Below are positions 19,519 to 39,883 of a stretch of DNA of 49,699 nucleotides, piece by piece (the first letter of the stretch is position 1; each line of letters starts with the position of its first letter). The position numbers and the translations under genes are program-made. The stretch comes from Lentisphaeria bacterium (GTDB lineage: Bacteria; Verrucomicrobiota; Lentisphaeria; JABSQK01; CAJWLW01), in contig CAUZJQ010000003.1 in the NCBI GenBank assembly GCA_963580095.1, positions 1 to 49,699 of the forward strand, in the 5' to 3' direction. A model generated the notes under the pieces. It saw only the letters and a program-made list of their open reading frames with translations, had not been told where the DNA came from and did no database searches.

Positions 19519-22500
19519 TTACTGTTGTTGCAGGCGTCCGCGCAGGTGTTCGGCCAACTGGACATTTCCCTCTGCGGTCGCCAGTTCGATTGCCTTCTGG
19601 TACTGGGCAATCCCGTCGTTCGGCATATTCTGGATGAAGAAGGCGTCGCCCAGATTTATCCGGGTATGGGTGCTGTTCGGTCGCAGCCCGATCGATTTTT
19701 TCAGGTGAACGATCGCGGTAGGATCACGTTTCTGGTTGAGCAAGGCCCCGAGAAGGCGCAGCCATTCGGGGTTCTCGGGTGAGAGCCGCACCGCTTCGCG
19801 AAAATGCTGGAGGGCCCGATCGAGCTGTTGCAGATAGACCAATGAATTGCCTAGCAGGGCGTGTGCGTGGGACGACTGGGGATTGATCCGAAGCGCCTCG
19901 TTGCATTGCTGTGCCGTCTGGGCAAATTGTTCGGAACGGACCAGAGCCTCCGCCAGTTCAATGCGCCACTCGTAGACGTCCGGTGCGAGCTCGACGGCTT
20001 TTCTCAGTGCCGTCGCGGCCTCCTCGTTCTTTTTCTGATACCGCAGAATAGTGGCGAGCTGTCCGTAGACACCCGCCCCGCCCCGCTGATGCTCGGCTGC
20101 ATCGCGGAGATAGAGAGCGCCATTGTCGAGAGTCCGTTGCCTATTCTCGGCAACCTCCGATCGCAGAAGGAAAAGCTGTGCCAGGTGCTCCATGCTCATA
20201 TGCTGCGGTGACTCGAGCCAGTGTGCTTCGAACGGGACGGACAGCGTTCGGCGCTGCCGTACGTCGGCGTCGAGCAGTTTGGCATCCTCGAGCAACGTGT
20301 CGACATCGACTGTTCCGCGATAAACCGCCATGATCCGCCCTTTGTCATCGATCAGGAAGCTGGTCGGCACTGCTAGTGGCACGACGCGCGCGAAGATATG
20401 GTCGTTGACTGTCTGCAGTCCGTCTATCGACGCGCTATCGATCAGACCCGCCTCGAAGGGGAACTGCAGCTTGTCGAGCAATCGCCAGACATCCGCCGTC
20501 TCGGTCTGCTTTCTTTCATCGACGCTGTCGACGCTCAGGGCGATGATGTTCAGCCCGGCATTTTTGAGCTGCTGCTGGTCCCGGGTCCACTGCATCAATT
20601 CGCGGTGGCAGGGCGCGCACCAACTGGCCCAGAGGTTGACCAGCGTCGGCCCCTTATTGTCCAGGTTCAGTAATCGTTGCGTACCTTGTCGATCCCGGTA
20701 GCTGATATGGGGCAGCAGCGGTCCGGATGCCAGAAACACACGCCCCGCGCTGGTCGCCGGCTTGCCGGCAAGGATCGTGGGCGTAAGGGGCCCCCTCCCG
20801 GGCGGGCGCGTCCACCGACGGGCTTCGCCGGTGCCCTGAGTGACATGGTACTGACGGTCGGCCTGCAGACCGGTGAACATCTCGGGTTCGCCGCCGGGCC
20901 AGTGGACAGTCACCTTCTCTATCGAGGTGCTGCTGCCCAGCCCGAAGTGCAGCCACTTGCTGGATTGGGCGAGAAATCCCTCTCCCGCGCGGAGGGTCCG
21001 GATCAAAGGTTTCGCCTCATCGCCACCCAAGTGGACCTTGACCCGGGCGCCGATGGCGTCCCGATTACACGTCTTGCCTTCCAGGCGAATCGCCAGGAAG
21101 TGGTTGCCCGTAGGCACGTCGTTGCGCATGTATCGGAGCTGCGGCGCCGTGCGATTGCGCAGCCAGAAATCGAGGTCCCCGTCGTGATCCCAGTCGACGA
21201 AGGCGGCGCCACGGCCGTCGTCTGAGAAGTCGAGGCCGCTGATCGGGGAGATGTCGGCGAATCGCCCATCCTGCATATTGAGGAAGACACAGTGCCGCTC
21301 GTAGCCACTCATCGAGCGCCCCTCCTCCTGCATGCGCACAACCTCGAAGTTGGCCGCCCTGTAGGCCTCCTGCTCTCCCGCACGACTTGGTATTTGCGAC
21401 ACGACCTGCCGCCAAAAAAAACTTCACAAATCCTTCGTGTCGGGAGCGGACAGGTTGCCGTTGGTCACCAGGATGTCGTCCCAGCCGTTGTTGTTGAGGT
21501 CGCAGAATAGAGAGGACCATGCCCACCGCCCCATCGTCACCCCCGCATCGACACTGACGTCGGTAAAGGTGCTGTCGCCGTTGTTGGCAAAAAGGGTGTT
21601 GCCGCGCGCCAGGCGTTGGAAGGATTTGCGGGCGAAAGGGGAGAGGTCGCGTGTGAATTGATCCTGTGTAACGATCCTGTTGCCGGCGTTTGAGTACATG
21701 TTGCTGACGTAAACGTCCATCAGGCCGTCGCGGTTGTAGTCGCCCCATGTAACAGACATGCCGGAGGCGATATCCTCGACATCCGCCGTCGCGGCGACAT
21801 CGACAAATGTGCCGCCGTCGTTGCGATACAGGCAGTTGCGCCCGAAATCGTTGGCCAGATAGAGGTCTTGATCGCCGTCATTGTCATAATCCTCCCAGGC
21901 AGCGGAGAAGGTGAAACGACTGTTGTTGGCATCCAGCCCGGTCTCGACAGTGACGTCGGTGAATTCGAAGTCGCCGTCGTTGCGCAGCAGGAAGTTTCTG
22001 GCGCCGTTATTGGCGTCGTAATAAGGAATCGGCAGTGCGGCGCGATCCGATTCGGCGGCGTTGCGGTTATAGCGGCCGACAAAAAGATCGAGGTCGCCGT
22101 CCTCGTCGTAGTCGGCGGCGCAAAGGGCGAAGCCCATCCCGGCGCTGGTGACGTGCGAAGCCTGCTCGAAATGTCCCGTGCCGTCATTCTCGAGGATAAC
22201 CACCCCGGCGCGCGTGCCGATCGCCAGGTCCTGGTCGCCGTCGTTGTCGAGGTCGACTAACAGAGCGGAGACGGTTGTATCGGCGAAATTGACACCTGAT
22301 TCGCTCGAGCGGTCGGTTGCGGTGGAATCCGGGTTCTGGATGAAGAGGCGATTGGGCAACCCGCCGGCCTCGCAGAGATACAGGTCGTCTAAGCCGTCGC
22401 CGTTCACGTCGCCGATTGCCAGGCCGGAGTAGCCGGCAATATGCTGGCCATGGGCCCGTTCGAGCCTGCCGATCCAATGGAACGTGCCGTGCATCAGCTG

Positions 22501-23277
22501 TTCCCGGAAAAAATCATTACCGCCGATCGCCGCCTCGGTACAGTCTGCAAACAGCGGCGTTTCGGGAGTTCGCAGAATCGTCTCCCGGTAATCGACCAGG
22601 CCGATGGTGTGCAGACGCGGTGGGTTACTGGTCTGCCAGACGCTTTCCCAGATGGATGAAACCGCCGAACCCCGGGCTCGGATCGACACATGCTGCCGCG
22701 TGGTGATCCGGTCAGGTTCCTGCTCGACCCGGAAGATCTTGATATCGACTTGCAGTTCCCCGCCCCCAGCGAATGGCTCTCGAAGCCGGCCAAGGGCTTC
22801 GGCAAGGCCGTCGACCCCATGATAGGGACCGAGGCCCTTAGCAGGATCCTGCGGATTCTCGGCGGCAAGAACCGTCAGGACCTCGTCGGCATAGCGTTCC
22901 TGCAGATTTGCGGGCCGAAGGCCGCTGCAGGAAAACTTGTTTGTCACCAGGGGCGTGAGCCGGGCCGTGTCGATGGGATTGGTCTGCTCGAGCAGACTGC
23001 CCAGTATCTTTAATTGGGCTTTTGCCGCCTTGCTAAACACCTCCGTGTGCCAGCCGTCGTCGGCGGGGTCGTCGGTGAAGAGCGAGTCGATCGGACGGCC
23101 GTCGATGGTGGCGGTGATCGTCTCGGGTTCGCTCGAGACTGTCGCCGTCACGGCTGTGGGGCTTGCGGCAGGTTCCGGATCCCGACAGCCATGGCGTAGG
23201 CTGAAAAACAGGCAGAACAGCATGATGATTGAGACTGTAATCCAGCAGCGATGTGCTCTGACCTGACAGATGATCAA
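19519..23277 (-). CDS. FG-GAP/CRTAC1 + ASPIC-UnbV + TlpA-like redoxin + TPR protein with one in-frame UGA (21424-21426); candidate selenoprotein
   Basis: Track ORFs 21424..23277 and 19519..21402 are in the same frame and join as ...DTKDL-UGA-SFFWRQVVSQIP.... D-x-D/N-x-DGDxD repeats occur on both sides of the UGA. Downstream come NRDAIGARV...LHFGLG (UnbV), WASWCAPC and TPR helices. Confidence 0.75.
21385..21423 (-). promoter_or_regulatory. Putative bacterial SECIS element
   Basis: The mRNA after UGA is AGUUUUUUUUGGCGGCAGGUCGUGUCGCAAAUACCAAGU. GCGGCA pairs with UGUCGC around a GGUCG loop, and UUG/CAA-type pairing can extend the lower stem. Confidence 0.6.
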
Positions 23278-23461
23278 AGGGTCTACTCTCGGTTATTGCG
23301 TGGGTATGCGGCTCGTCCGGAACGTGTTTACCATAGTCTTTGCAAACATTTTCGCGAATACAACCGTTTTTTTTCATCACAGTTTCAACGGCTGCTTTTC
23401 GTTGAATGAAGTTACAGTGCCGAAAAAGGATAACGAGGTCGATTAGGCGTGGTCTGTACAC

Positions 23462-23501
23462 AAAAAAAAAACCGGAGATCGTTGTGATCTCCAGGCTTTT
23501 T
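23462..23501 (-). terminator. Rho-independent terminator after collagen-stalk paralog A
   Basis: GGAGATC/GATCTCC stem flanked by an A-run and a T-run, so probably bidirectional. Homologous copies lie at 25038 and 26473. Confidence 0.75.
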
Positions 23502-23536
23502 GAGTTGTGCTGTATAAGGGCCCTTACGGAGTAGTC

Positions 23537-24628
23537 TTACTGACTGTCGTAGACTGTCTGGACCTGGTCGATGATGTATTCCATGCAGGTTGCGAAATCG
23601 CCCGGGATCGGATCGCAGATGTTGCCGCCGGCTCCGACGGTAGCGACTGTGCCGATGGCTTGGACGGTGCTCTGGAAATCAGTGACCGTGTTGGACGGAT
23701 CAGCCAGCAGCAATGCGGTGGCGAGATCGAAGGTGGAGTCGGAGAGTGTCTCACAGGTGACACACGGAGCTGCTGCGCCGGTATCGCCCAACTTACCCTG
23801 CGGACCCTGGTCGCCGACTGGACCATCCGAACCGACCTTGCCCTGCGAACCCTGCGGTCCAGGAGTCGATTCGATGCTGTCGATCTGGTCCTGTATATCG
23901 TTGAAACGATACGAGTTGAAATCGACTCCGGCCTGTTCTGGGACGAGGCTGGGTTCGGCCACGACGTAAGCACCGCCGATATCGATCGCCTCTCCGCTGG
24001 TATCGTTACTGGCCTTGCCGGCGGCGTCTACTGCAAAAACACCGCCAGTCTCCGGTTTGACATCATGTACCTTGCCTTCGCTGTTAATTCTGAAGGTCAA
24101 GTAGTTGATCTCGGGGAGTCCCGCTGGGTTACTGGATGTAGAGTGCCGATTGAGTCTTGGCCGACCGGTTTCACTCGGCCATATGCCCGTAGTGACATTA
24201 TCGCCACCAACCCATCCGTAATGTCCGGGTCCAAAAAGGCCCACGAGACTGCCGCTGTTGCCGAAGAAACCGTATTCCACAGTCGGCCCGGTGATGTTCA
24301 ACGTGCTGGTGCCTTCGCCGTTGGCGCCCCAGGGCGGTTGAATGTTCTGGACATTGCCGCTGCCGTCGACGTCAAACGTCACTGCCTCATGAAAATGAGC
24401 CCACTTTCCGACCCAATTGTATGAGCCGGTCGGTACATCTCCCGTCATCTCTGAGGCTGCATTCCAAGGAAGCCAAGCATGCCCCCCTGGCAGGGTCGTG
24501 CCGGGTTGAGCGTAACATGCCCAAGGGGTGTTGTCGGCATTTGCAGAGATCGTGACGTTGAACCCACTTGCCGGAATTGCCAAGGCCAAGGCCCCGACTG
24601 CGATGATTGCGATTAATGTTTTTTTCAT
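23537..24628 (-). CDS. Secreted protein with variable N-terminal head, coiled-coil neck, 10 Gly-X-Y collagen triplets and Cys-rich C-terminal domain (paralog A)
   Basis: Signal peptide MKKTLIAIIAVGALALAIPASG, collagen run GPQGSQGKVGSDGPVGDQGPQGKLGDTGAA, and C-terminal APCVTCETLS...ICDPIPGDFATCMEYI. Confidence 0.85.
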   Translation of the reverse strand: MKKTLIAIIAVGALALAIPASGFNVTISANADNTPWACYAQPGTTLPGGHAWLPWNAASEMTGDVPTGSYNWVGKWAHFHEAVTFDVDGSGNVQNIQPPWGANGEGTSTLNITGPTVEYGFFGNSGSLVGLFGPGHYGWVGGDNVTTGIWPSETGRPRLNRHSTSSNPAGLPEINYLTFRINSEGKVHDVKPETGGVFAVDAAGKASNDTSGEAIDIGGAYVVAEPSLVPEQAGVDFNSYRFNDIQDQIDSIESTPGPQGSQGKVGSDGPVGDQGPQGKLGDTGAAAPCVTCETLSDSTFDLATALLLADPSNTVTDFQSTVQAIGTVATVGAGGNICDPIPGDFATCMEYIIDQVQTVYDSQ

Positions 24629-24683
24629 GAGTGTCTTCCTTTTTTCTGTTTTGATGATTGGTCTATTAACTCGCTCAAGAGAC

Positions 24684-24712
24684 ATTATAGAAAAATCCTT
24701 TGCGGATTGCAA
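24684..24712 (-). promoter_or_regulatory. Sigma70-type promoter of paralog A
   Basis: TTGCAA-17 nt-TATAAT with an upstream A-tract. Conserved upstream of all three paralogs. Confidence 0.75.
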
Positions 24713-24953
24713 GTCTTTTTTTTGTCGAAATTGCGCGTAGTATTTGAGCCGCCCCGGTGGCCTTGTGCCGCTTGGGTTACTGACTCGTTTATTAGAGTGT
24801 GTTGCGCATGTTTTTTAGGATAGTTCGCTAACCGGAGGGCAAAGGAAGTACTCTCGGATAATGCGTGTTTATTCCCGTTTATCCAGGCAGGCAGGTTTTA
24901 TACTCGAGACTTGGCAAAGGTTTTAGCGTATGGAGTCGGCTCTTTTTGTCGAA

Positions 24954-25196
24954 CCTAACGACTGCTCTTCGTAAGAATGAAGGAAACTATGTCGGGAAGA
25001 GATGAAGGGGAGCGATTTGGCGTGTGTGTTCGTACGCAAAAAAAAAGCCCGGAGATCATTGTGATTTCCGGGCTTTTTGAGTTGTGCGGTATGGCGGCCC
25101 TTACTCGGCGGCCTTAGCGTCGTAGATGCCTTGGACCTGATCGTTGATGTATTCCAGACAGGTTGCGAAACCGCCCGGGATCGGATCGCAGATGTT
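24954..25196. repeat. Direct repeat copy 1 (3' end, terminator and downstream region of paralog B)
   Basis: Near-identical to 26390..26630. The 110 bp at 25087..25196 match 26521..26630 exactly. Confidence 0.9.
25038..25078 (-). terminator. Rho-independent terminator after paralog B
   Basis: A-run, then GCCCGGAGATC...GATTTCCGGGC, then TTTTT. Confidence 0.8.
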
Positions 25197-26234
25197 ACCG
25201 CCGGAACCGACGGTAGCGACTGTGGCGATCGCATCGACGGAGCTCTGGAAATCGGAGACCGTGGATGGCGCATTGCCTGCCAGGAGTGCGCAAGCGAGAT
25301 CGAAGGTGGCAACGGAGAGCGTCTCACAGTCGACACACGGAGCCGCCGCGCCTCCCGCGCCGTCTGCGCCAATCTTACCCTGGGTACCCTGGTCGCCGGC
25401 TTTGCCCTGCGGGCCCTGCGGGCCGGGAGTCAGTTGAATGTTGTCGATCGATGCCTGCAACTCGTTCTTGATCCTCAGCAAGTCACCATCGATGGGGCCC
25501 TGTTCTGCGACGAGGCTCGTATCGGTCATTACGTAACCCAAGCCGACTTCGACAGCTGATCCTGCGGTGTTAAGTTCAGCCCGGCCGGTAGCGTCTATCG
25601 AAAAGGTTCCGGAACCCGCCGGAGAAGCTGAGGAGACCGTGCCGGTCTCAGGGCTTATCGTGAAGTCGACGTAGAAGAAGTCCTTCCCTGTGGGACTTTG
25701 GGAAGGGTGCAGCCAAGTTGAGGATGCTCTGTCCTGCGGCCACAGAGCGTTAGTGGTGAACTCACCATCTCCGCACCAGCAAGGTGGCGAAACGGCACCA
25801 GGAACACCGTTTTGCGAACTATTGGTAGCAGACGTTAGAGCACCTCCAGCACCTGCGAAACCGAAAGTAACCGTAGGCGGTGTGATGTTCAAGGTGGAGG
25901 TGCCTGCGCCGTTGCCGCCCCACGACGGCTGGATGTTCTGGATCAAGCCGCTATCGTCAACGTCAAACTTCAGAGCGCCCGGGAAATGATTCCAGAATCC
26001 GCCAAACGAGTATGAACCGGTCATCATGTCGCCGGTTTTTTCGTAGCAGCCTGGCCAACAAGACCCATAATCCCAAGGCGCAAAGGGAGCAGGTGCATAG
26101 CCGCCCCGAGTGTGGTCCGAAATAATCGACGGCGCGCTAGATGACGGGGCAATGATCGTGATGTTGAAGGCACTTGCAGGGATTGCCAGAACCATGGCCC
26201 CGGCTGCGATGATTGCGGTTAATTTCTTCTTCAT
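25101..26234 (-). CDS. Secreted variable-head collagen-stalk protein (paralog B; 9 Gly-X-Y triplets)
   Basis: Signal peptide MKKKLTAIIAAGAMVLAIPASA, AAGGAG RBS, collagen run GPQGPQGKAGDQGTQGKIGADGAGGAA, and the conserved C-terminal domain. Confidence 0.85.
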   Translation of the reverse strand: MKKKLTAIIAAGAMVLAIPASAFNITIIAPSSSAPSIISDHTRGGYAPAPFAPWDYGSCWPGCYEKTGDMMTGSYSFGGFWNHFPGALKFDVDDSGLIQNIQPSWGGNGAGTSTLNITPPTVTFGFAGAGGALTSATNSSQNGVPGAVSPPCWCGDGEFTTNALWPQDRASSTWLHPSQSPTGKDFFYVDFTISPETGTVSSASPAGSGTFSIDATGRAELNTAGSAVEVGLGYVMTDTSLVAEQGPIDGDLLRIKNELQASIDNIQLTPGPQGPQGKAGDQGTQGKIGADGAGGAAAPCVDCETLSVATFDLACALLAGNAPSTVSDFQSSVDAIATVATVGSGGNICDPIPGGFATCLEYINDQVQGIYDAKAAE

Positions 26235-26321
26235 CCTGCGGATCTCCTTAATTGGCAATTTTCGTTTTTTCTGTTGATCGGCAGTTGTGAACTTCTGCGT
26301 TTTTCCGATTCAGCAGTCTTC

Positions 26322-26350
26322 AGTATAGAAAAATCCTTTGCGGTTTGCAA
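26322..26350 (-). promoter_or_regulatory. Sigma70-type promoter of paralog B
   Basis: TTGCAA-17 nt-TATACT, with a spacer nearly identical to that of paralog A. Confidence 0.75.
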
Positions 26351-26389
26351 GTTTTTTTTTGTCGAAATTGCGGTAGTATTTGAGCCGCC

Positions 26390-26630
26390 CCTAACGACTG
26401 CTCTTCGTAAGAATGAAGGAAACTATGTCGGGAGAGATGAAGGGGAGCGATTTGGCGTGTGTGTCCGTACGCAAAAAAAAGCCCGGAGTTCATTGTGATC
26501 TCCGGGCTTTTTGAGTTGTACGGTATGGCGGCCCTTACTCGGCGGCCTTAGCGTCGTAGATGCCTTGGACCTGATCGTTGATGTATTCCAGACAGGTTGC
26601 GAAACCGCCCGGGATCGGATCGCAGATGTT
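26390..26630. repeat. Direct repeat copy 2 (3' end, terminator and downstream region of paralog C)
   Basis: Near-identical to 24954..25196 and includes the terminator at 26473..26511. Confidence 0.9.
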
Positions 26631-27650
26631 GTCGCTGGAACCGACGGTCGTGACCGCGCTGATGGCTTGGACGGAACTTTGGAAGTCGGTTACCGTGGAC
26701 GGCGGATTCGCCAGCAGCAGTGCGCAGGCGAGTTCTAAGGTGGCGTCGGAGAGCGTCTCACAATCGACACACGGAGCTGCTGAGCCGGCATCGCCCTGCT
26801 TGCCCTGGGGGCCCTGGCCACCGGCTGCACCATCCGAACCGACCTTGCCCTGCGGACCCTGCGGGCCAGGAGGCGGTGAGATGTTATCGATCTTGCTCTG
26901 CAGCTCAGCGAAACGATATGAGTCGAAATCGATCGCGGCTGCATCCGAGGTGAGTTCCGGGTCGCACATGACGTAAGCCGAGCCGATAGGGATAATTGTG
27001 CCTGCGGTGTCGATTTCAGCCCGGCCGGTAGTGCCGTCTACTGTAAATACACCGTTAGTTGCCGGAAAAGGATCAACGATTTTGCCATCCGCGTTCATGC
27101 TAAACTGTAGGTACGGCACATGATCATAGCCGCCCGGTGCTGAAAGGTGCCGATAAAGTGCGGCAGGTTCGGCTAATCCAGGCCACATACCCGCTGAAGT
27201 GTGATCGCCGTCTCCGACCCAGCCGTCCATGCAAGCACCGTGTGGCCATTTGTGCACATGGCACACCAGGCCAGTTCCGGCACCTGAGAAGCCGTAAGAA
27301 ACTGAAGGCGCCTGGATGTCCAACCTGTTGGTGCCTTCGCCGGAGCCGGCCCATGCCGGTTGAATGTTCTGGAAATTCCCGCTGTCGTCAACGTCGAACG
27401 TCACTGCATTCTGAAAATGAGCCCACCTTCCGGTCCAATTGTATGAGCCGGTCGGTACATCTACCTCAACACCATTATTAGTACCCCAAGGAAGCCAAAC
27501 ATGCCCCCCTGGCAGGGTCGTGCCGGGTGCAGCGTAACATGCCCAAGGGTTGTTTGCATCATTTGCAGAGATAGTGACGTTGAACGCACTTGCGTCGATT
27601 GCCAGGACCAGGGTCACGGCTGCGATGATTGCGGTTAATTTCTTTTTCAT
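26535..27650 (-). CDS. Secreted variable-head collagen-stalk protein (paralog C; 10 Gly-X-Y triplets)
   Basis: Signal peptide MKKKLTAIIAAVTLVLAIDASA. The N-terminus resembles paralog A (PWACYAAPGTTLPGGHVWLPW) and the C-terminus is identical to paralog B. Confidence 0.85.
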   Translation of the reverse strand: MKKKLTAIIAAVTLVLAIDASAFNVTISANDANNPWACYAAPGTTLPGGHVWLPWGTNNGVEVDVPTGSYNWTGRWAHFQNAVTFDVDDSGNFQNIQPAWAGSGEGTNRLDIQAPSVSYGFSGAGTGLVCHVHKWPHGACMDGWVGDGDHTSAGMWPGLAEPAALYRHLSAPGGYDHVPYLQFSMNADGKIVDPFPATNGVFTVDGTTGRAEIDTAGTIIPIGSAYVMCDPELTSDAAAIDFDSYRFAELQSKIDNISPPPGPQGPQGKVGSDGAAGGQGPQGKQGDAGSAAPCVDCETLSDATLELACALLLANPPSTVTDFQSSVQAISAVTTVGSSDNICDPIPGGFATCLEYINDQVQGIYDAKAAE

Positions 27651-27738
27651 CCTGTGGGTCTCCTTAATTTTTAATTTCCGTTTTTTTTCTGGTGTCGGAA
27701 GTTGCGAACTTCAGCGGTTTCCCGCTTCAACTGTAATC

Positions 27739-27767
27739 AGTGTAGAAAATCCATCTGCAAATTGCAA
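27739..27767 (-). promoter_or_regulatory. Sigma70-type promoter of paralog C
   Basis: TTGCAA-17 nt-TACACT with an upstream A-tract. Confidence 0.65.
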
Positions 27768-27869
27768 GACTTTTTTTCGCATACAATTGGAGCGCATTAA
27801 TCCAATTTGTCTGCGAGGATCTCTTGACTGGCGTACTCGTGGATTTTTTTGAGGTACGCCCGGCGCGTC

Positions 27870-29222
27870 TCAATCCAAGTCGACGAGAATCTCTATATCG
27901 GCGTTGCCGCGGAGTTCCTTGAGGTGAGCGCGGCGGGTCCACTCGAGTTTGGCCGCTGCGACCTGATCGTGGAAGGCGCCTTTGCCCCCGTCGTTGAGGA
28001 AAGACCGGGTGATCAATATCTGCCAGGACCGAAATTCGTCATCGGTCAGTTCGTCCGGGAGGATTTCCTGCTTCGCCGCATTCAGGTGTCGGCGCAGAGC
28101 GTCGTTGTCGTCAGCGCTACCGCCCATCACCGTCTTCATTACGGCCTCGTAGTATGCATCGAGTTCCTCATCGGTCACTTCGATGTTTTTGGCAGTCAAC
28201 CCGTGCGCGTCGTAATACGCTTCGACTAGGGCGGGATCGACAACAGCACTTAGTTTTGCGACCGTGTCAGCTAGGTGTTTTACCGTCTCAGTGGTCTTTG
28301 ACAGTAGTTCCACTGTTTTCGGCTCCTTGTCGAATCCTTTTTCCCGTGCTTCGGCGGCTAGCACCTGAATCCTCAAGATCGACACCAGCATCACATCCGC
28401 CTTTGCCCCCGTCGTCTGGGTGCCGATATTGTCCCACCCGGGAAGGTAGCCCAGCACCAGATCTTTGCCGTTAACAGTCAGCACGGCCTTCGCCAGAAGT
28501 TCGTCGATCAATTCCGGATCGCCAGCCAACTCTGTGGGGTCGACGGCTCGCGCTTTCGCTTCGCTGGCCAGCGCCAATTCGATGATCTTGTCACGGAGCG
28601 GTGCGCCTTGCCCTGCTTTAGCCCCCGAGCCCACTTGCCTGGTACTCGCCGAGTCCAACGCTTGATCAATAACTGCCGAAGGTATGGCGTCACCGTTGAC
28701 GGCAAGCCGAATGTCCGCCATCAGCGTTTTTAGCCAATCGCCATACGCCGTTGACTTACGCAAGCGTGTCACAACGCTGCGTGCCTCCTGCCGGTGGAAC
28801 TTAGGGTTTACCTTGGCAAAATAGTCCGCATGCTCGATCAGGCAGGCATCGATTTCTGCCTTTGTTACCTTCACCTTCTTTTCGAGCCCGGAACGAAGCT
28901 CCTTCTCGTAAAACATGCCGAGGAGGCCTGAGCTCCGCTGTATCTCCAGTGCCAGCATCTTTTTGATCTGCGACTCCATACCCTCGGGTTTCTCGATGCC
29001 TTCCGTCTCGGCCTGCTGCGCGATTAATCGGTGATCGATGGCAATTTGGAGCGGGCGGATGAACCCTGTTTCATCGAGAATGAGATTGCTCTCGTAGATT
29101 GCTGTCCCGTTTACCCTGGCCAACGGGTCGACCGGATCGTCCTGGGCCAGGGCGCCACTGCCACAGAGCCAGCATACGAGACTACAAATAAGGATATTAG
29201 AAAAAGATCGTGTTGTGCGCAT
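27870..29222 (-). CDS. Exported SurA/PrsA-N-like helical protein with no recognisable parvulin domain
   Basis: Signal peptide, LARVNGTAIY, LIAQQAETEGI and LAAEAREKGF, KVKVTKAEIDA and NIEVTDEELDAYY, and C-terminal LKELRGNADIEIL. Confidence 0.55.
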   Translation of the reverse strand: MRTTRSFSNILICSLVCWLCGSGALAQDDPVDPLARVNGTAIYESNLILDETGFIRPLQIAIDHRLIAQQAETEGIEKPEGMESQIKKMLALEIQRSSGLLGMFYEKELRSGLEKKVKVTKAEIDACLIEHADYFAKVNPKFHRQEARSVVTRLRKSTAYGDWLKTLMADIRLAVNGDAIPSAVIDQALDSASTRQVGSGAKAGQGAPLRDKIIELALASEAKARAVDPTELAGDPELIDELLAKAVLTVNGKDLVLGYLPGWDNIGTQTTGAKADVMLVSILRIQVLAAEAREKGFDKEPKTVELLSKTTETVKHLADTVAKLSAVVDPALVEAYYDAHGLTAKNIEVTDEELDAYYEAVMKTVMGGSADDNDALRRHLNAAKQEILPDELTDDEFRSWQILITRSFLNDGGKGAFHDQVAAAKLEWTRRAHLKELRGNADIEILVDLD

Positions 29223-29427
29223 GGTGTCGATTCCTGTTTTAGGGCATTGAGTGTTACGCTGTAGACGGTCCAAAACTGTACGCTAAATCCATGCCAGATC
29301 AAGTATAATTGCGGGATGTGGGATGCCCGAACGCCATAATAAATAGGGAAGTTGGCAATTATAGTTGAGATTTGGTAGATTGCTCGGCTGTTCGTGGGGC
29401 GTGGAATTATTGAATTGAGGTTATGCA

Positions 29428-30237
29428 ATGAAAACGACAGTGACAGCTGAAGAGATTTCCCGCTATCGAGACCAGGGCTACTTGATCATCGAGGATTTGT
29501 TGTCGCCGCAAGAACTGGAGAGCTTGAAGGGGGCCGTCACGACTACAGTCGAGCAGATGGGAAATCGTAAGCTGGTTGGCGAGGGAAACGAGCAATTTCA
29601 ATATGACCGAGAGAAAAACCCCGACACGACTTTCCTGCAGAAAATCAACCTGTGGAAAGATAATGATACGGTTTCAGGTTTCGTGCGCAATCCTGAAATC
29701 GGTAGAATGGCGTGTGAGCTTGCCGGCGTTAACAGCGTTCGGCTCTGGCACGATCAGACCTTGCAGAAGCTGCCTTGGTCCAATCCCACGTCTTGGCATC
29801 TCGACGCCCCCAACTGGTCGTTCCATTCCCGTGATGTGCTTTCGATTTGGATCGCGCTGAGTGACTCAACGCTTACGAACGGCTGCATGTGGTTCGTGCC
29901 CGGCACCCATAAGACCGCGGAATTCGAACGAAATGCTGAATTCAGTACGCAGGTGGGCGCCCTGTTCGACATTTACCCGGAATGGCACGGACTCGATGCG
30001 GTGCCGATTGAGTTGAAGGCTGGTTCGGCCAGTGTCCACAACGGCTTGCTCGCCCATGGCGCCGGGGTGAATATGACGCAGAACCCCAGGCAGGCGATGG
30101 TTGGCATCTACATGCCGGACGGCGTCACCTTCAACGGCATCCAAAATATTCTTTCCGCTGAACAAATGGAAGCGCTCAAGGTGGGGGACCGGTTCAATGA
30201 TGATGAGCAGAATCCGGTGGTCTGGTCGCGGCAATGA
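29428..30237 (+). CDS. PhyH-family Fe(II)/2-oxoglutarate dioxygenase
   Basis: Motifs YRDQGYL, TSWHLD (HxD), IWIAL.D.T..NGCMWFVPGTH, HNGLLAHGAG.N and PR. Confidence 0.92.
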   Translation: MKTTVTAEEISRYRDQGYLIIEDLLSPQELESLKGAVTTTVEQMGNRKLVGEGNEQFQYDREKNPDTTFLQKINLWKDNDTVSGFVRNPEIGRMACELAGVNSVRLWHDQTLQKLPWSNPTSWHLDAPNWSFHSRDVLSIWIALSDSTLTNGCMWFVPGTHKTAEFERNAEFSTQVGALFDIYPEWHGLDAVPIELKAGSASVHNGLLAHGAGVNMTQNPRQAMVGIYMPDGVTFNGIQNILSAEQMEALKVGDRFNDDEQNPVVWSRQ

Positions 30238-30343: not shown

Positions 30344-31150
30344 ATGGAAGATTGCACAGCCCACAACATGCAGACTGCGCTCGTCGGCTTGGATGTTCAT
30401 GCCAACACCCTTACGGAAGAGGAAAAGAAGATCCTCGATGAGCAAAGCTTTCTGCTCCTCGAAAATCTGATGGATGATGCATGGATGGAGGATGTTCGGA
30501 GCAGTTACGAAACCCTGATGGAAGAAAAATACGGAGCGTTTCGACCCGAGACTGTCGGGAAACCGGCTGCAGACGGAACCAGCAGGCACTTCAATGCGGG
30601 TACCCGCAGGTGGTTTGATATGGTCAGTGAAGGGGAAGTTTTCGAGCGCATGTACACTCATCCCAAAGTGCTTGCCGCGGTTCACCAGATTTTGAAAGCC
30701 GACTTCAAGCTGCATTCCGTAAACGGACGCGATGCCCTGCCGGGTATGGGAGAACAATCACTCCATACCGACACCAGCGCCCGAAATCCCGATGAGCCGT
30801 ACAAGTTGGTCAACTCCGCCTGGCTCCTCGATGCCTTTACCGAAGAATCCGGCCCAACGCGGATCGTGCCCGGCACGCACAACCTGAAGGGGGAGCCGAA
30901 GGACTATGTCAATCCAGAGGACAGCCACGCGGAACAACAGTTGGTCCATGCTTCCGCCGGATCCGTCTTTGTGTTTAACTGTCATCTCTGGCACAGCGGG
31001 ACCAAGAACCGGAGCACCTCATTGAGACGGGCGATCCACTGCGCGTTTGGCAGGCGCGATTACGACCAGCAACCCTGCCAGAAAGAACGGATTCGCAAGT
31101 CGACCTATGACCGCCTCTCACCAGCAGCCCGGTATTTGCTGGATGTGTAG
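30344..31150 (+). CDS. PhyH-family Fe(II)/2-oxoglutarate dioxygenase
   Basis: Motifs QSLHTD, NSAWLLDAFTEESGPTRIVPGTH and FNCHLWHSGTKNRS..LRR. Confidence 0.92.
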   Translation: MEDCTAHNMQTALVGLDVHANTLTEEEKKILDEQSFLLLENLMDDAWMEDVRSSYETLMEEKYGAFRPETVGKPAADGTSRHFNAGTRRWFDMVSEGEVFERMYTHPKVLAAVHQILKADFKLHSVNGRDALPGMGEQSLHTDTSARNPDEPYKLVNSAWLLDAFTEESGPTRIVPGTHNLKGEPKDYVNPEDSHAEQQLVHASAGSVFVFNCHLWHSGTKNRSTSLRRAIHCAFGRRDYDQQPCQKERIRKSTYDRLSPAARYLLDV

Positions 31151-38057: not shown

Positions 38058-38227
38058 CGGCCACTTCGCAAAGACAGTTGCATTGATTAGTCTTGGCCAT
38101 CTCCGGTGGCCGCAAGCTTCCCCTCGTCTTTTAATCCGACTCGCAATCTCTCGTCGTGATCATACTCTTAATTGCGTGGTTTAAGCGTGGGAGCCGGAGC
38201 GATTAAGCGTACATATAGGAGTTGATT

Positions 38228-39883
38228 ATGTCCAGGCGGAAAAGCCGAAGATCGAAGTTGCCCGTGTTCGTCACTGCGGGGCTCGTGACCGCAGCGCTGG
38301 TCGGTTGGCTGATTCTGAGACAATCGGCTGGGGATGCCCTTCCACCGCCGGAGCGCAGGGGACAGCAGGCAGATTCCGGGACGCCGTCCAGAAAAAGCAT
38401 CACCGAAAACGACATACGCCGTTTTTGTTCGACTTGTCATGTTTTTGCGGAGCCGTCGGTGATGCCGAAAATCGTGTGGCCTGCCGTGGTCGACCGGATG
38501 TATCGGTTTGTCGGCTTGCAGTTGCCTGAGCTCGCGCGCTCAGGTGTCATGCCCGACCGCCGTGCTGTCGAAGCCTGGTTTGTCAGATTGGCGCCCGAGG
38601 AACTTCCGCGGCCGGAGATCAAGCCTGAGGGACCGCCGTCTAATGTTCGTTTTGCGCGCCACGATTTTGGCGGTAAGTCATCCATGCATGGTGTCTCGCA
38701 AACTACTTTCATCCGCTACTCTGGACAGTTGCCCGATGTCCTGGTCGCCGATTTGCGGGCCGGAAATATAAGTGTGTTCCAGGTCGCAGGCCCGGCGCCT
38801 GGGCGGGAGGTCCTGGCGAACATCAGTGCCCCGGCGCACGTCGAGCCTGTCGACCTGGATAGGGATGGTCACCGGGATTTCGTCGTTGCCAACCTCGGCA
38901 GGTTCGAGCCGTCGAATGAGCGGATCGGTCAGGTTGTGTGGCTGCGGTACGTCCCGGAGACAGCCGTTTACGAACCAATTATACTGGCACAGGACCTCGG
39001 GCGTGTCGCCGACCTCCGGGCAGCGGATATGGATGGCGACGGAGACGTCGATCTGGTCGTTGCAGTGTTTGGCTGGACCGAGGCGGGAGAACTGCTGTAT
39101 TTTGAAAACCGGACCGTGGATTTTTCCCGGCCGGAGTTCAGGCGACGGAAGCTTGATCGGCGCACCGGCGCAATGCGTTTGCAGCTCACCGATCTCAACG
39201 GCGACGGGCTGACGGATATCATTGCATTGTTCAGCCAGGCTTATGAAGATGTGGTCGCTTTCCTGAACGAAGGCGATGGAAATTTCAGCGGCACACTGGT
39301 GTATGAGGCGCGCAATCCCGACTTCGGATTCAGCGGTATGCAGGTCGCCGATATCGATGGCGACGGAGACATCGACATCCTGGTGACCAACGGCGACTCG
39401 ACCGACATCGAGCTGCTTAAGCCGCAACACGGCGTGCGGCTGCTTGAGAACCGTGGCAGTTTCCCGTTTGAAGCGCACGTCCTGACGGCGTTCCCCGGCG
39501 CCTATGGCGTTGCCGCGGCGGATCTCGACAACGACGGTGACCAGGACATCGTCGCGGTTGCCTGGCTCCCGGTCAGTAACGAGGGGCCAAGCGCGCGTCG
39601 GGACACGCCGCACTTCGACCTCTACAATGCCAGGGACCTGCTCCGGCTCAGTTCGATTATCTGGCTCGAGCAGACGGCGCCGCTGGTTTTCGAGTACCAC
39701 ACGATTGAGAAAATGCACGGCGATCATGTGACGGTCGATATTGCAGATTATGACGGCGACGGTGATCTGGACCTGGTTACCGGCAATCTTTCGCTGGATG
39801 GGATGCAGGCACCACCCCAACTCCCGGCGCGGCCCGGTGAGATTACGATATGGGAAAACACGCTGATCCAGCAACAGGAATGA
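38228..39883 (+). CDS. Membrane-anchored FG-GAP/VCBS repeat protein with an N-terminal c-type heme motif
   Basis: N-terminal TM segment, FCSTCH (CxxCH)..P..MPK..W...V..M, and repeats DLDRDGHRD, DMDGDGDVD, DLNGDGLTD, DIDGDGDID, DLDNDGDQD and DYDGDGDLD. Confidence 0.85.
   Translation: MSRRKSRRSKLPVFVTAGLVTAALVGWLILRQSAGDALPPPERRGQQADSGTPSRKSITENDIRRFCSTCHVFAEPSVMPKIVWPAVVDRMYRFVGLQLPELARSGVMPDRRAVEAWFVRLAPEELPRPEIKPEGPPSNVRFARHDFGGKSSMHGVSQTTFIRYSGQLPDVLVADLRAGNISVFQVAGPAPGREVLANISAPAHVEPVDLDRDGHRDFVVANLGRFEPSNERIGQVVWLRYVPETAVYEPIILAQDLGRVADLRAADMDGDGDVDLVVAVFGWTEAGELLYFENRTVDFSRPEFRRRKLDRRTGAMRLQLTDLNGDGLTDIIALFSQAYEDVVAFLNEGDGNFSGTLVYEARNPDFGFSGMQVADIDGDGDIDILVTNGDSTDIELLKPQHGVRLLENRGSFPFEAHVLTAFPGAYGVAAADLDNDGDQDIVAVAWLPVSNEGPSARRDTPHFDLYNARDLLRLSSIIWLEQTAPLVFEYHTIEKMHGDHVTVDIADYDGDGDLDLVTGNLSLDGMQAPPQLPARPGEITIWENTLIQQQE

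Follow-up and report, generated by a model that had tools for sequence, protein, structure and literature searches.

A family of collagen-stalked proteins with variable heads and a putative cysteine-stapled C-terminal domain in marine Lentisphaeria

Three tandem genes from an uncultured marine Lentisphaeria bacterium encode secreted proteins in which a variable head and a short collagen-like stalk are followed by what appears, from modelling and covariation, to be a previously undescribed cysteine-stapled three-helix domain of 80 aa (the C-terminal domain, CTD). Bacterial collagen-like proteins are mainly known as single adhesins or as the hairs of Gram-positive spore coats. Here, one genus carries about fifty such genes with at least 22 head types on a single modular design, which comes with its own promoter type and chaperone paralogs.

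Three tandem genes with a common layout

Three paralogous open reading frames (A, B and C), each taken to start at the Met preceding the signal peptide, span positions 23540-27650 on the minus strand of the window, that is, the whole stretch of 49,699 nucleotides that was analyzed. The features discussed are as follows.

23540..24628, minus strand: gene A, 363 aa; signal peptide, beta head, neck, 10 Gly-X-Y (GXY) triplets, CTD
25104..26234, minus strand: gene B, 377 aa; layout as gene A but with 9 GXY triplets
26538..27650, minus strand: gene C, 371 aa; layout as gene A, 10 GXY triplets; protein used for modelling
23771..23860, minus strand: GXY run of gene A, aa 257-286; Pfam Collagen below cut-off
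25344..25424, minus strand: GXY run of gene B, aa 271-297; Pfam Collagen below cut-off
26778..26867, minus strand: GXY run of gene C, aa 262-291; Pfam Collagen below cut-off
23540..23770, minus strand: CTD part of gene A
25104..25343, minus strand: CTD part of gene B
26538..26777, minus strand: CTD part of gene C; modelled helices span residues 6-23, 29-46 and 62-78 of its 80 aa
24684..24712, minus strand: promoter-like site of gene A, TTGCAA-17-TATAAT, preceded by an A-tract and lying 55 nt ahead of the ATG
26322..26350, minus strand: promoter-like site of gene B, TTGCAA-17-TATACT, lying 87 nt ahead of the ATG
27739..27767, minus strand: promoter-like site of gene C, TTGCAA-17-TACACT, lying 88 nt ahead of the ATG
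23452..23527, minus strand: conserved region 3' of gene A, containing a T run and, at 23472-23494, a hairpin resembling a terminator
25029..25104, minus strand: 3' region of gene B; another copy of that hairpin region, at 78% identity
26463..26538, minus strand: 3' region of gene C; another copy of that hairpin region, at 84% identity
27870..29222, minus strand: 450-aa SurA/PEB4-like chaperone paralog with a signal peptide; next gene upstream of C

In an alignment of the three proteins, identity to A is 52% for B and 60% for C, and column identity averages 72%. The common layout that an earlier, sequence-only reading had described is borne out: FN[VI]TI directly follows the signal peptide, TGSY, FDVD.SG..QNIQP.W...G.GT, APCV.CETLS and NICDPIPG.FATC.EYI are all present, the triplets (given as 9-10) number 10, 9 and 10 in A, B and C, and the proposed neck corresponds to a helix predicted at residues 242-255 of C. 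The alternation of conserved blocks and variable stretches that it reported also recurs over 14 non-redundant relatives, with conservation at residues 83-111 and in the CTD and variation at residues 30-63, 156-163 and 232-250. Gene A lacks the third conserved cysteine of the CTD and has Thr in its place; the last 25 codons of gene B are 100% identical in DNA to those of gene C. Contigs from four seawater RNA libraries cover all three genes but, being assembled contigs, cannot prove transcription (30 of 37 contig records are at least 99% alike, the remaining ones 95-99%).

All three proteins have the uninterrupted Gly-X-Y run of PF01391 proteins. Their scores of 21 (A), 15.9 (B) and 18.3 bits (C) lie under the gathering cut-off of 27.2 because the runs are short, and several paralogs with longer runs clear it, at up to 36.6 bits. 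The run is disordered in the monomer model of C; the whole-protein model has a mean pLDDT of 62.6, with only moderate confidence in the head. Across the genome, 6-20 triplets stand immediately N-terminal to the CTD in 31 of 46 family reading frames, and the CTD is present in 27 of the 39 reading frames that have at least seven triplets.

A modelled three-helix domain of narrow taxonomic range

The sequence-only reading did not recognize the C-terminal domain, and neither did the databases: the CTD has no family match in Pfam (3+36 proteins), NCBIfam or PHROGs, and none by sequence in the PDB (best E 0.94). AlphaFold2 predicts a compact three-helix bundle (pLDDT 78.3, pTM 0.62) in which a bridge joins residues 4-5 to 51-52. 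Searched against the PDB, this model gave a best E of only 2.3 with Foldseek, and with VIA-align a best Z of 6.6, among generic helical bundles. Covariation among 124 unique CTD sequences couples positions 9-45/46, 12-40, 14-43, 16-40/42, 19-34/35, 14-67/68 and 2-48, a ladder that is independent of the model and agrees with it on the bundle; a self-contained monomeric bundle would fully explain both. Five cysteines are conserved. Cys3 and Cys52 are lost together in five sequences, in which the last cysteine is kept (judged by eye), Cys18 is lost alone in CTDs of the gene A type, and a sixth cysteine occurs in 28 of the 124. The CTD is the most conserved part of the proteins, with an entropy of 0.62 versus 1.20 in the head.

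An iterated HMM search, of the kind proposed with the original description, found 46 reading frames with a CTD in the 4.8-Mb genome (54 six-frame matches); in 44 the domain lies within 18 residues of the stop, and it is carried by unrelated heads, which is the outcome that the proposal had looked for. Three sister species have 32-48 CTD matches each and a sister genus has seven. Among 41 related genomes only five, all within one family, contain the CTD; it is absent from the 36 other genomes of the class that were searched and from all 400 genomes sampled across the phylum, and 2.9 million viral contigs yielded no relative. As far as these searches reach, the family appears to be lineage-restricted and greatly expanded, and to occur in only a single small group of marine bacteria. 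All full-length members carry a signal peptide of the Sec type.

The spacing between collagen and CTD is fixed: in 28 aligned collagen-bearing rows Gly4/7/10 and Cys18/21 are invariant, and Gly1/13 nearly so. In 12 of 41 tree rows the CTD comes without collagen, and these rows take in all three loci of the sister genus that the tree includes; once the domain directly follows the signal peptide, at the N-terminus of a tyrosinase, and at one sister-genus locus it is internal to the protein. Its occurrence without collagen and on the tyrosinase argues against a pure sorting signal or a pure collagen-trimerization module, and collagen register is therefore not its sole or original role. With about fifty near-alike CTDs per cell, chains would be prone to join in the wrong heterotrimers unless the choice of partner chain were also encoded in the CTD.

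Promoters, neighbours and heads

Each gene was claimed to have its own promoter and terminator, and both parts of the claim agree with our comparison. The promoter-like region is present in three copies (24683-24722, 26321-26360 and 27738-27777), and the 3' hairpin-plus-T-run region likewise, one per gene and 78-84% alike. The segment originally singled out ended at position 27767, the first base of the gene C -35 hexamer. A generic scan of the region finds promoters and terminators at about chance level (3 versus 2.6 and 5 versus 4.8 expected), whereas the specific family motif, TTG[CG]AA-N17-TA[TC]A[CA][CT], is far above it, with 39 matches in the whole genome versus 1-6 in each of five shuffled genomes. 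Of these matches, 27 lie at most 260 nt upstream of family genes; in a sister species (G003) a CTD is found downstream of 22 of 38 matches, and a control pattern gave seven matches. The motif thus looks almost private to family genes, which are probably co-regulated with genes for other adhesion-type proteins (cadherin-like/Big_9, integrin-beta VWA-like and beta-helix).

The neighbour of gene C has the N-terminal domain of the SurA/PEB4-like chaperones: a profile of ten paralogs matches Cbf2/PEB4 (3rfw) at positions 34-158 with an E of 1e-7, and HP0175 with 9.5e-6. No parvulin-type PPIase domain was found in the paralog at 27870-29222 (Pfam and NCBIfam, E up to 10). Seven of 12 such paralogs lie within 4 kb of family genes versus 0.7 expected (p about 1e-6), and the same holds for seven of 20 loci in G003. 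Neighbours with a prepilin-type N-terminal motif, which scores below the Pfam cut-off, are also enriched beside family genes (8 of 33, p about 4e-4). No secretion-machine genes recur beside family genes, and in the window the genes around A, B and C are of housekeeping and FG-GAP/ASPIC type, none of them phage genes.

The heads of 35 family proteins fall into 22 clusters that are unrelated by BLAST. Those of A, B and C are all-beta and show only weak likeness to Ig-like or CnaB-type sandwiches; the suggested resemblance to collectins and ficolins hence holds for the layout and not for the head, which has no clear known fold. Diversification of the heads, also suggested from the sequence, is supported by mosaic, clustered changes and by dN>dS in some windows. 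Between C and its ortholog, DNA identity is 98-100% over codons 181-371 and 52-90% over codons 31-180, and the syntenic locus holds three, two or three genes with differing heads in three genomes, gene B having no counterpart in the locus of one relative (locus L099). These patterns suggest that the heads diversify by mosaic replacement. The expected position of the variable blocks on loops is matched in part: they mostly coincide with non-strand segments of the model, which are of low confidence.

Possible roles and relation to known systems

The layout, the size and range of the family, the monomer fold of the CTD, its spacing to the collagen, the promoter, the chaperone linkage and the mosaicism support a reading to which we give slightly less than even confidence: the proteins form trimeric head-stalk fibrils of a cell-surface or matrix coat, and the CTD is their common base for register, attachment or both. 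Here we infer the trimer, the disulfide pairs, the folding order, the location and the binding function. The chain would be exported unfolded via Sec and kept soluble in the periplasm by a SurA/PEB4-like paralog, while the CTD would fold by itself into a three-helix bundle stapled by disulfides, likely Cys3-Cys52 and Cys6-Cys62, with Cys18 free or paired with the optional Cys36. Because the bundle stands at a fixed distance from the last triplet, three CTDs may align three chains, from which a short triple helix would zip toward the two-heptad neck. In animal collagens, strand alignment and trimer formation are set by disulfide-linked C-terminal non-collagenous regions, as reviewed in PMC8968730. 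The product would be a trimer of 'lollipop' shape, its far end bearing three variable beta-sandwich heads, and the CTD, common to about fifty heads and the tyrosinase, could hold the fibrils together or to a shared partner in the coat. The heads probably evolve fast, as segments are replaced and loop residues change, and such evolution suggests that they have diversified in what they bind. A strong promoter type of its own would drive transcription of the whole family. Against this reading stands that we identified no anchor partner, no outer-membrane component and no element for binding the cell wall.

Several other readings draw on the same data. The CTD might be a monomeric, dockerin-like plug for a putative scaffold or receptor, the neck and collagen trimerizing by themselves and the family amounting to interchangeable heads and enzymes loaded on one extracellular structure. 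The autonomous, compact fold seen in model and covariation would suit such a plug, as would its occurrence without collagen, on the tyrosinase N-terminus and on a cadherin-like protein (by eye, in the C-terminal tail of that frame), its strong conservation and the co-regulated adhesion-type proteins; we nevertheless regard it as rather unlikely, as Pfam shows no likeness to dockerins and the fixed spacing to the last triplet suggests structural coupling with the triple helix. We are similarly doubtful of a wider 'matrix-building kit', in which a lineage-specific plug attaches about fifty collagen-stalked heads to one extracellular scaffold, together with a tyrosinase as cross-linker and cadherin-like proteins, and which would add a joint switch-on through the near-private promoter type and the family's own periplasmic chaperone paralogs. 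If true, it would parallel the cellulosome on a collagen basis, or amount to an extracellular matrix that a prokaryote assembles from interchangeable parts. That the CTD is instead an export or sorting signal, a folded tag read by a lineage-specific outer-membrane machine and perhaps removed later, with a logic comparable to the type IX secretion CTD, seems improbable to us. Its place at the extreme C-terminus (44 of 46 own frames and the CTD-bearing database proteins listed), its many unrelated cargoes and the enriched prepilin-type neighbours and periplasmic chaperone paralogs fit a tag, but in one member the domain comes right behind the signal peptide and at one sister-genus locus it is internal, the fold is helical and unlike the beta-sandwich of the known type IX tag, secretion-machine genes are not recurrent neighbours and no cleavage motif is evident.

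Collectins have a Cys-rich hub at the opposite chain end, and the layout here mirrors them. Trimers cross-linked through an unpaired Cys18 could be secreted as soluble, multivalent bouquets, for example for the aggregation of particles or prey, and not form a cell-bound coat. An odd number of conserved cysteines in 47 of 124 unique CTDs (five scored columns; 40 more if an alternative last column is counted) and the lack of a membrane or wall anchor in Pfam and NCBIfam point this way. We hold such bouquets to be quite improbable, given that gene A and its kin have no Cys18, that the sixth cysteine of 28 of the 124 CTDs would pair with it, and that its exposure is an assumption. An origin from phage fibres, as tail-fibre-like receptor-binding proteins of a prophage or tailocin, is very hard to credit: the collagen part matches many PHROGs tail-fibre families (best E 2e-8, gene C) and some family heads have tail-fibre-like repeats, but the matches are confined to the GXY run, Sec signal peptides are universal in full-length members, the gene surroundings contain nothing of phage kind, and the viral contigs gave no relative. 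In tail fibres, moreover, the conserved end is opposite to the C-terminus conserved here.

If the CTD registers or docks collagen as a small, autonomous, disulfide-stapled unit, it would be a new tool for recombinant collagens and would open a way to study how a bacterium with two membranes makes a diversified coat of fibrils, and it may shed light on the attachment of these bacteria to particles, algae or prey. The family would also be a natural library of fast-evolving putative binding heads on a constant chassis.

Among known systems, type IX secretion CTDs (Por_Secre_tail) were rejected, with no Pfam match and a helical CTD model, as were trimeric autotransporter adhesins, whose YadA-type barrel is unmatched in Pfam and whose place at the C-terminus is taken by helices. 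Dockerins of cellulosomes, of about 70 aa, are mostly C-terminal and occur on dozens of unrelated proteins per genome, including enzymes. The CTD is likewise a small, mostly C-terminal module on many unrelated proteins, one enzyme included, but it has no calcium-binding repeats and no known cohesin-like partner, and Pfam Dockerin_1 was unmatched in 39 proteins. Collectins, ficolins and C1q share the head, helical neck, collagen stalk, Cys-rich hub and tandem paralogous genes; here the chain order is reversed, and membership was rejected given the N-terminal head and the absence of C-type lectin, fibrinogen and C1q domains (Pfam, E up to 1). Cysteine pairs mark collagen C-terminal junctions in the collagen III knot and FACIT COL1/NC1. 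Like these and the procollagen C-propeptides, which set register and start folding from the C-terminus, the CTD is a Cys-rich, presumably disulfide-held domain right after the last triplet; unlike them, it has 80 aa, also occurs without collagen and gives no hint of removal, and there is no relation in sequence or fold.

In BclA of Bacillus, a short conserved end has a targeting role. That end is N-terminal and the C-terminus is a beta jelly-roll head, whereas here the order is reversed and the CTD helical; the BclA/C1q-TNF type was rejected, the C-terminal jelly-roll being absent and the CTD modelled as three helices (pLDDT 78). In streptococcal Scl, the N-terminal V domain nucleates the trimer and an LPXTG motif anchors the protein to the wall, unlike the putative Cys-stapled helical bundle in a two-membrane host described here. 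Scl1/Scl2 (NF038330, NF038329) were rejected at 17-22 bits versus cut-offs of 325-400, with no LPXTG at the CTD end, and Legionella Lcl (NF046116) at 20-23.5 bits versus 500, in the GXY part only. Lcl is also a secreted collagen-like protein of a Gram-negative bacterium with a functional C-terminal domain (PMC11162425). In Lcl that domain is the binding head. The exosporium nap of the BclA type, as reviewed in PMC8968730, has many collagen-like paralogs with one short conserved end in a hair-like coat; the family described here likewise has many such paralogs with a shared conserved end and may form a coat. The same review gives Scl1/Scl2 as 'lollipops' with a variable N-terminal globular head that differs between strains, a collagen-like stalk and a conserved C-terminus that fixes the protein in place (PMC8968730), and this is the layout that the Lentisphaeria proteins share.

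Three paralogs at a conserved locus

The tandem array of three paralogs described in the sequence-only reading was borne out, with three open reading frames (ORFs) on the minus strand between 23462 and 27767, here called genes A, B and C (proteins A, B and C). These ORFs and the genes next to them are as follows.

23540-24628, minus strand: gene A, 363 aa, ORF from the Met before the signal peptide
25104-26234, minus strand: gene B, 377 aa, ORF from the Met before the signal peptide
26538-27650, minus strand: gene C, 371 aa, ORF from the Met before the signal peptide
27870-29222: secreted chaperone-like protein of 450 aa, just upstream of gene C
29428-30237, plus strand: PhyH-family 2OG dioxygenase
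30344-31150, plus strand: second PhyH-family 2OG dioxygenase

B and C are 52% and 60% identical to A, respectively, and the common layout first described for them is accurate: after a Sec-type signal peptide come a head of some 220 residues, a short helix, a run of GXY triplets (10 in A, 9 in B and 10 in C) and an 80-aa Cys-rich C-terminal domain (CTD), whose CxxC directly follows the collagen run in all three. Each gene also has, as had been claimed, its own copy of a conserved promoter-like region and of a 3′ region with a hairpin and a T run. The flanks are the same in three genomes: one consists of the chaperone-like gene and the two PhyH genes (syntenic in L099, the corresponding locus of a relative, and in the relative G002), the other of the gene for an FG-GAP protein. 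Family genes, by which we mean those encoding a CTD, number three at this locus in the window, two in L099, where B is missing, and three with other heads in G002. Given that only two genes are present in one relative, a C1q-like heterotrimer of A, B and C is unlikely. The window holds four FG-GAP/ASPIC-UnbV proteins (19519-21402, 21424-23277, 38222-39883 and 42556-45057), one joined to a thioredoxin-like domain with TPR repeats and another to a Laminin_G_3 domain.

On A, B and C, Pfam gave the Collagen repeat alone, at 21, 15.9 and 18.3 bits and hence below the cut-off (27.2), NCBIfam gave merely collagen adhesins far below threshold and confined to the GXY part, and PHROGs matches were confined to the GXY run. 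The CTD had been put forward as an unrecognised domain, and indeed it matched nothing in Pfam, NCBIfam, PHROGs or PDB sequences. A profile of 38 CTDs found nothing among PDB sequences (best E 0.94), a full-length profile matched collagen stretches alone, and in 36 paralogs Pfam recognised none of the CTDs and found hardly any family in the heads. The ESM Atlas was of no use here: the Atlas's own model has a pLDDT of 0.36, and feature matches (≤0.82) were to collagen clusters. The literature, covered mostly at listing or abstract level, held nothing on the CTD family or on Lentisphaerae collagen-like proteins.

Size, architecture and range of the CTD family

The window's own genome (545 contigs, 4,820,162 bases) has a completeness of 92.5%. 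Built from the three CTDs without their collagen, an HMM detected 26 reading frames in it, rising to 46 on iteration (49 at E ≤0.01 in a separate count), and a six-frame search gave 54 matches. Such an HMM had been proposed as a check on whether the domain sits C-terminally on unrelated N-termini, and in 44 of the 46 frames it ends at most 18 residues from the stop. It is immediately preceded by 6-20 GXY triplets in 31 of the 46; eight full-length members have no collagen beside it, a ninth has its sole GXY run at a distance, and six frames are fragments. Clustering 35 full-length members by their heads (BLAST, E <1e-3) gave 22 groups, and that of A, B and C has one additional gene, on contig C9. 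A motif of the type F-x-V-x-x-D-G-x-V occurs in 11 of the 35 otherwise unrelated heads, twice each in A, B and C, at a density of 1.4 per 1000 aa in heads versus 0.12 in other long reading frames, a crude background that includes non-coding frames.

Among frames with at least seven GXY triplets, 27 of 39 carry the CTD. The other 12 include some wrong-frame artefacts, one frame that ends at a contig edge exactly where the CTD begins, and about half a dozen of a second architecture, with a tail-fibre-like domain behind the collagen. This second architecture is found on contigs C205, C245, C418, C75, C156 and C23 of the same genome, with motifs such as FWDGDIAGDI...SGNVGIG, and at least one of these collagen genes lies behind the family promoter motif. 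A CTD-like domain also stands right after the signal peptide in L074, a locus of the same genome (contig C177, 6384-8393), followed by long Pro-Glu linkers and a tyrosinase (PF00264, E 6e-39). This secreted tyrosinase could be a cross-linking enzyme sent where the collagen-stalk proteins go.

Of 41 related genomes, 5 had matches to the CTD profile: 54 in the own genome, 32, 48 and 40 in three congeneric species and 7 in the family's only other genus. The remaining 36, which belong to other families of the class and order, had none, and neither did 400 further genomes sampled across the phylum. As these genomes are samples, the range is to be read as not found in those searched. A search with protein C of 1.84 billion representative proteins gave 180 matches at E ≤0.001, three of them at ≤1e-30, and the CTD was present in 57 of 154 collected proteins (own translations included), at the C-terminal end in all 57. 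Where the source gives a name, all CTD homologs are Lentisphaeria MAG proteins. The species collection held two loci related to protein C, labelled uncultured Lentisphaerales MAG and Lentisphaeria MAG, and viral contigs held no relatives.

CTD fold, coupling to collagen and head diversification

The AlphaFold2 model of the CTD (38-row alignment, mean pLDDT 78.3, pTM 0.62) has helices at 6-23, 29-46 and 62-78 and a small bridge from 4-5 to 51-52. Covariation across 124 unique CTDs (effective number 64), which is independent of this model, is weak but coherent: an antiparallel ladder joins helices 1 and 2 (9-45/46, 12-40, 14-43, 16-40/42 and 19-34/35), helix 3 touches helix 1 (14-67/68) and the CxxC region touches the end of helix 2 (2-48). 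Five Cys are conserved, with Cys6 and Cys62 invariant and Cys3, Cys18 and Cys52 present in at least 90%. Cys3 and Cys52 are jointly absent in five of the 124 CTDs, in which the last Cys is kept by eye reading and scored absent in the column tally; CTDs of the gene A type lack Cys18 alone, and 28 of 124 have a further, sixth Cys at position 36. From this pattern of loss and presence we infer that disulfides link 3 with 52 and 6 with 62 and that Cys18 is either unpaired or bonded to Cys36. The best Foldseek match in the PDB had an E of 2.3, and a wide VIA-align search reached at best Z 6.6, to unrelated three-helix bundles, an arrangement rated common; neither search names a structural relative.

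An alignment of 28 collagen-bearing members has ungapped columns for the Gly of the last five triplets and for both Cys of the CxxC, with little or no variation in any of them; the distance from the last triplet to the start of the bundle is therefore fixed. A registering or stapling element would require such spacing. A passage in PMC8968730 describes disulfide-linked C-terminal non-collagenous regions that align the chains of animal collagens, to which the CTD would be alike in logic. In a tree of 41 CTDs, 11 of the 12 collagen-less domains, including the tyrosinase and all three sister-genus loci placed, lie on one side of a branch with support 92/95, and the opposite side holds the collagen-bearing domains with one collagen-less member nested within. 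Three of the four sister-genus loci examined are without GXY, and the domain is internal in one. The tree thus argues against collagen registration as the whole role of the CTD and, together with the GXY-less sister-genus loci, it indicates that the domain is autonomous and probably predates its fusion to collagen.

A full-length model of C (mean pLDDT 62.6, pTM 0.55) is all beta over residues 22-241, followed by a helix (242-255), a GXY run that is disordered, as expected for a single modelled chain, and the same three-helix CTD. Confidence is good at about 83-125 and 185-245 and poor at 45-57, 133-143, 157-159 and 171-174. Among 14 non-redundant relatives, 83-111 and the CTD are conserved and 30-63, 156-163 and 232-250 are variable; in line with the expectation that variable blocks map to loops, the variable stretches largely coincide with non-strand, low-confidence segments of the model. 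Foldseek on the head, another of the suggested checks, gave no match at E ≤0.001. Faint similarity to a CnaB domain and Gram-positive pilins, and that of residues 20-115 to NttC and SpyCatcher (Z 5.6-5.8), are leads only, and the head has no clear fold relative. Two BFVD rows at E ~1e-4 were set aside as not meaningful (TM 0.15).

That the heads are diversified is confirmed by comparison of C with its L099 ortholog: DNA identity is 98-100% over codons 181-371 and 52-90% over codons 31-180, and dN exceeds dS in codons 121-180 (0.14-0.18 versus 0-0.065), a mosaic pattern. Codons 61-90 and 151-180 account for most of the difference between A and its own ortholog. Over their last 25 codons, B (25104-25178) and C (26538-26612) are identical in DNA, with 42-81% identity in the remainder, which points to recent gene conversion.

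Shared promoter motif, neighbouring genes and a putative surface fibril

Upstream of 31 of the 36 family genes with a clear start, 42-205 nt ahead of the start codon, there is an A-tract, TTG[CG]AA, 17 bases with a T-rich end, and TATAC[CT] or a close variant. Counting both strands, the own genome has 39 matches to the pattern TTG[CG]AA-N17-TA[TC]A[CA][CT] versus 1, 1, 1, 5 and 6 in five shuffled genomes, and 27 of the 39 matches lie at most 260 nt upstream of family genes (26 genes). Unlike this specific motif, generic sigma-70 sites in the region were no more frequent than chance would give. The other 12 matches were classified by the C-terminal tails of the genes behind them: two precede apparent divergent family members missed by the HMM, one a family gene that ends at a contig edge exactly where the CTD begins, one a truncated collagen gene with a tail like that of the second, CTD-less architecture, and others a giant cadherin-like/Big_9 protein, an integrin-beta-VWA-like protein, a beta-helix protein and a secreted ubiquitin-domain protein. 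In the sister species G003 the motif occurs 38 times versus 7 for a reversed control, and 22 of the 38 have a same-strand CTD match 0.3-2.3 kb downstream.

Two motif-preceded loci of the own genome, L111 (contig C38, 15629-21424; giant cadherin-like/Big_9) and L112 (contig C59, 14060-18739; large, with an integrin-beta VWA-like domain), look together with the collagen, TSP3-like and FG-GAP proteins like a matrix- or adhesion-type set. A further locus, L113 (contig C154, 1238-3631), encodes 798 aa with a signal-peptide-like start, a full ubiquitin domain (PF00240, E 2e-31) and DUF6345, and has the family motif upstream; a ubiquitin fold is uncommon in secreted proteins of bacteria.

At least half of the sampled words of 23400-29300 are present in twenty public seawater or marine runs, seven of which are RNA libraries, and contigs from four RNA libraries span A, B and C. 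Of 37 contig records, 30 are ≥99% alike and the rest 95-99%. The RNA contigs are at most consistent with expression: contigs cannot prove transcription, their breaks at paralog-repeated sequence are uninformative on transcript ends, and their depth is unfit for ranking genes.

Neither Pfam nor NCBIfam matched the 450-aa chaperone-like protein. A profile built from ten of its paralogs matched the N-terminal chaperone domain of Campylobacter Cbf2/PEB4 (3rfw, E 1e-7) and Helicobacter HP0175 (E 9.5e-6 and 8.7e-5), and no parvulin domain was detected. BLAST finds 12 paralogs in the own genome; 7 of them have a family gene at most 4 kb away, usually as the immediate neighbour and in varying orientations; just 5.6% of the genome is that close, so 0.7 would be expected (binomial p ~1e-6). 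In G003, 7 of 20 chaperone-like loci are within 4 kb of a CTD match, which is no independent test because the species are kin. Eight neighbour families were tested, and the weaker enrichments that follow are uncorrected: 8 of 33 proteins whose N-terminus bears a prepilin-type methylation motif (PF07963, scoring slightly under the cut-off) are near family genes (p ~4e-4; for example C106:7430-8248 and C9:27963-28877), as are 5 of 10 members of a small secreted protein family. PhyH paralogs lie within 4 kb in 8 of 49 cases (p 0.005 uncorrected). With this weak enrichment and no signal peptide, the PhyH dioxygenases were not adopted as collagen hydroxylases, and a link to collagen modification is speculative.

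Our best reading, which we regard as quite possible, is that the family forms putative trimeric fibrils of a surface or matrix coat. Their triple helix would be very short, and at its C-terminal end the CTD would hold three chains in register and provide their common base. The main rival, somewhat unlikely in our judgement, takes the CTD as a monomeric docking plug for a shared scaffold, and it is favoured by the members that lack collagen, by the tyrosinase and by the co-regulated adhesion-type proteins; the two readings are not mutually exclusive. Other explanations fit less well: that the CTD is a sorting tag we consider improbable, that the proteins are soluble inverted collectins slightly more so, and that they are phage fibres very improbable indeed.

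Bacterial collagen-like head-stalk proteins are already known as a kind. New here are the CTD as a domain family, its scale of about fifty genes per genome, a polarity reversed relative to BclA and collectins, the near-private promoter and the dedicated chaperone paralogs. The fibril design of head, stalk and base is that of streptococcal Scl proteins and exosporium hairs, but the present family differs in having a new base and in belonging to a two-membrane bacterium.
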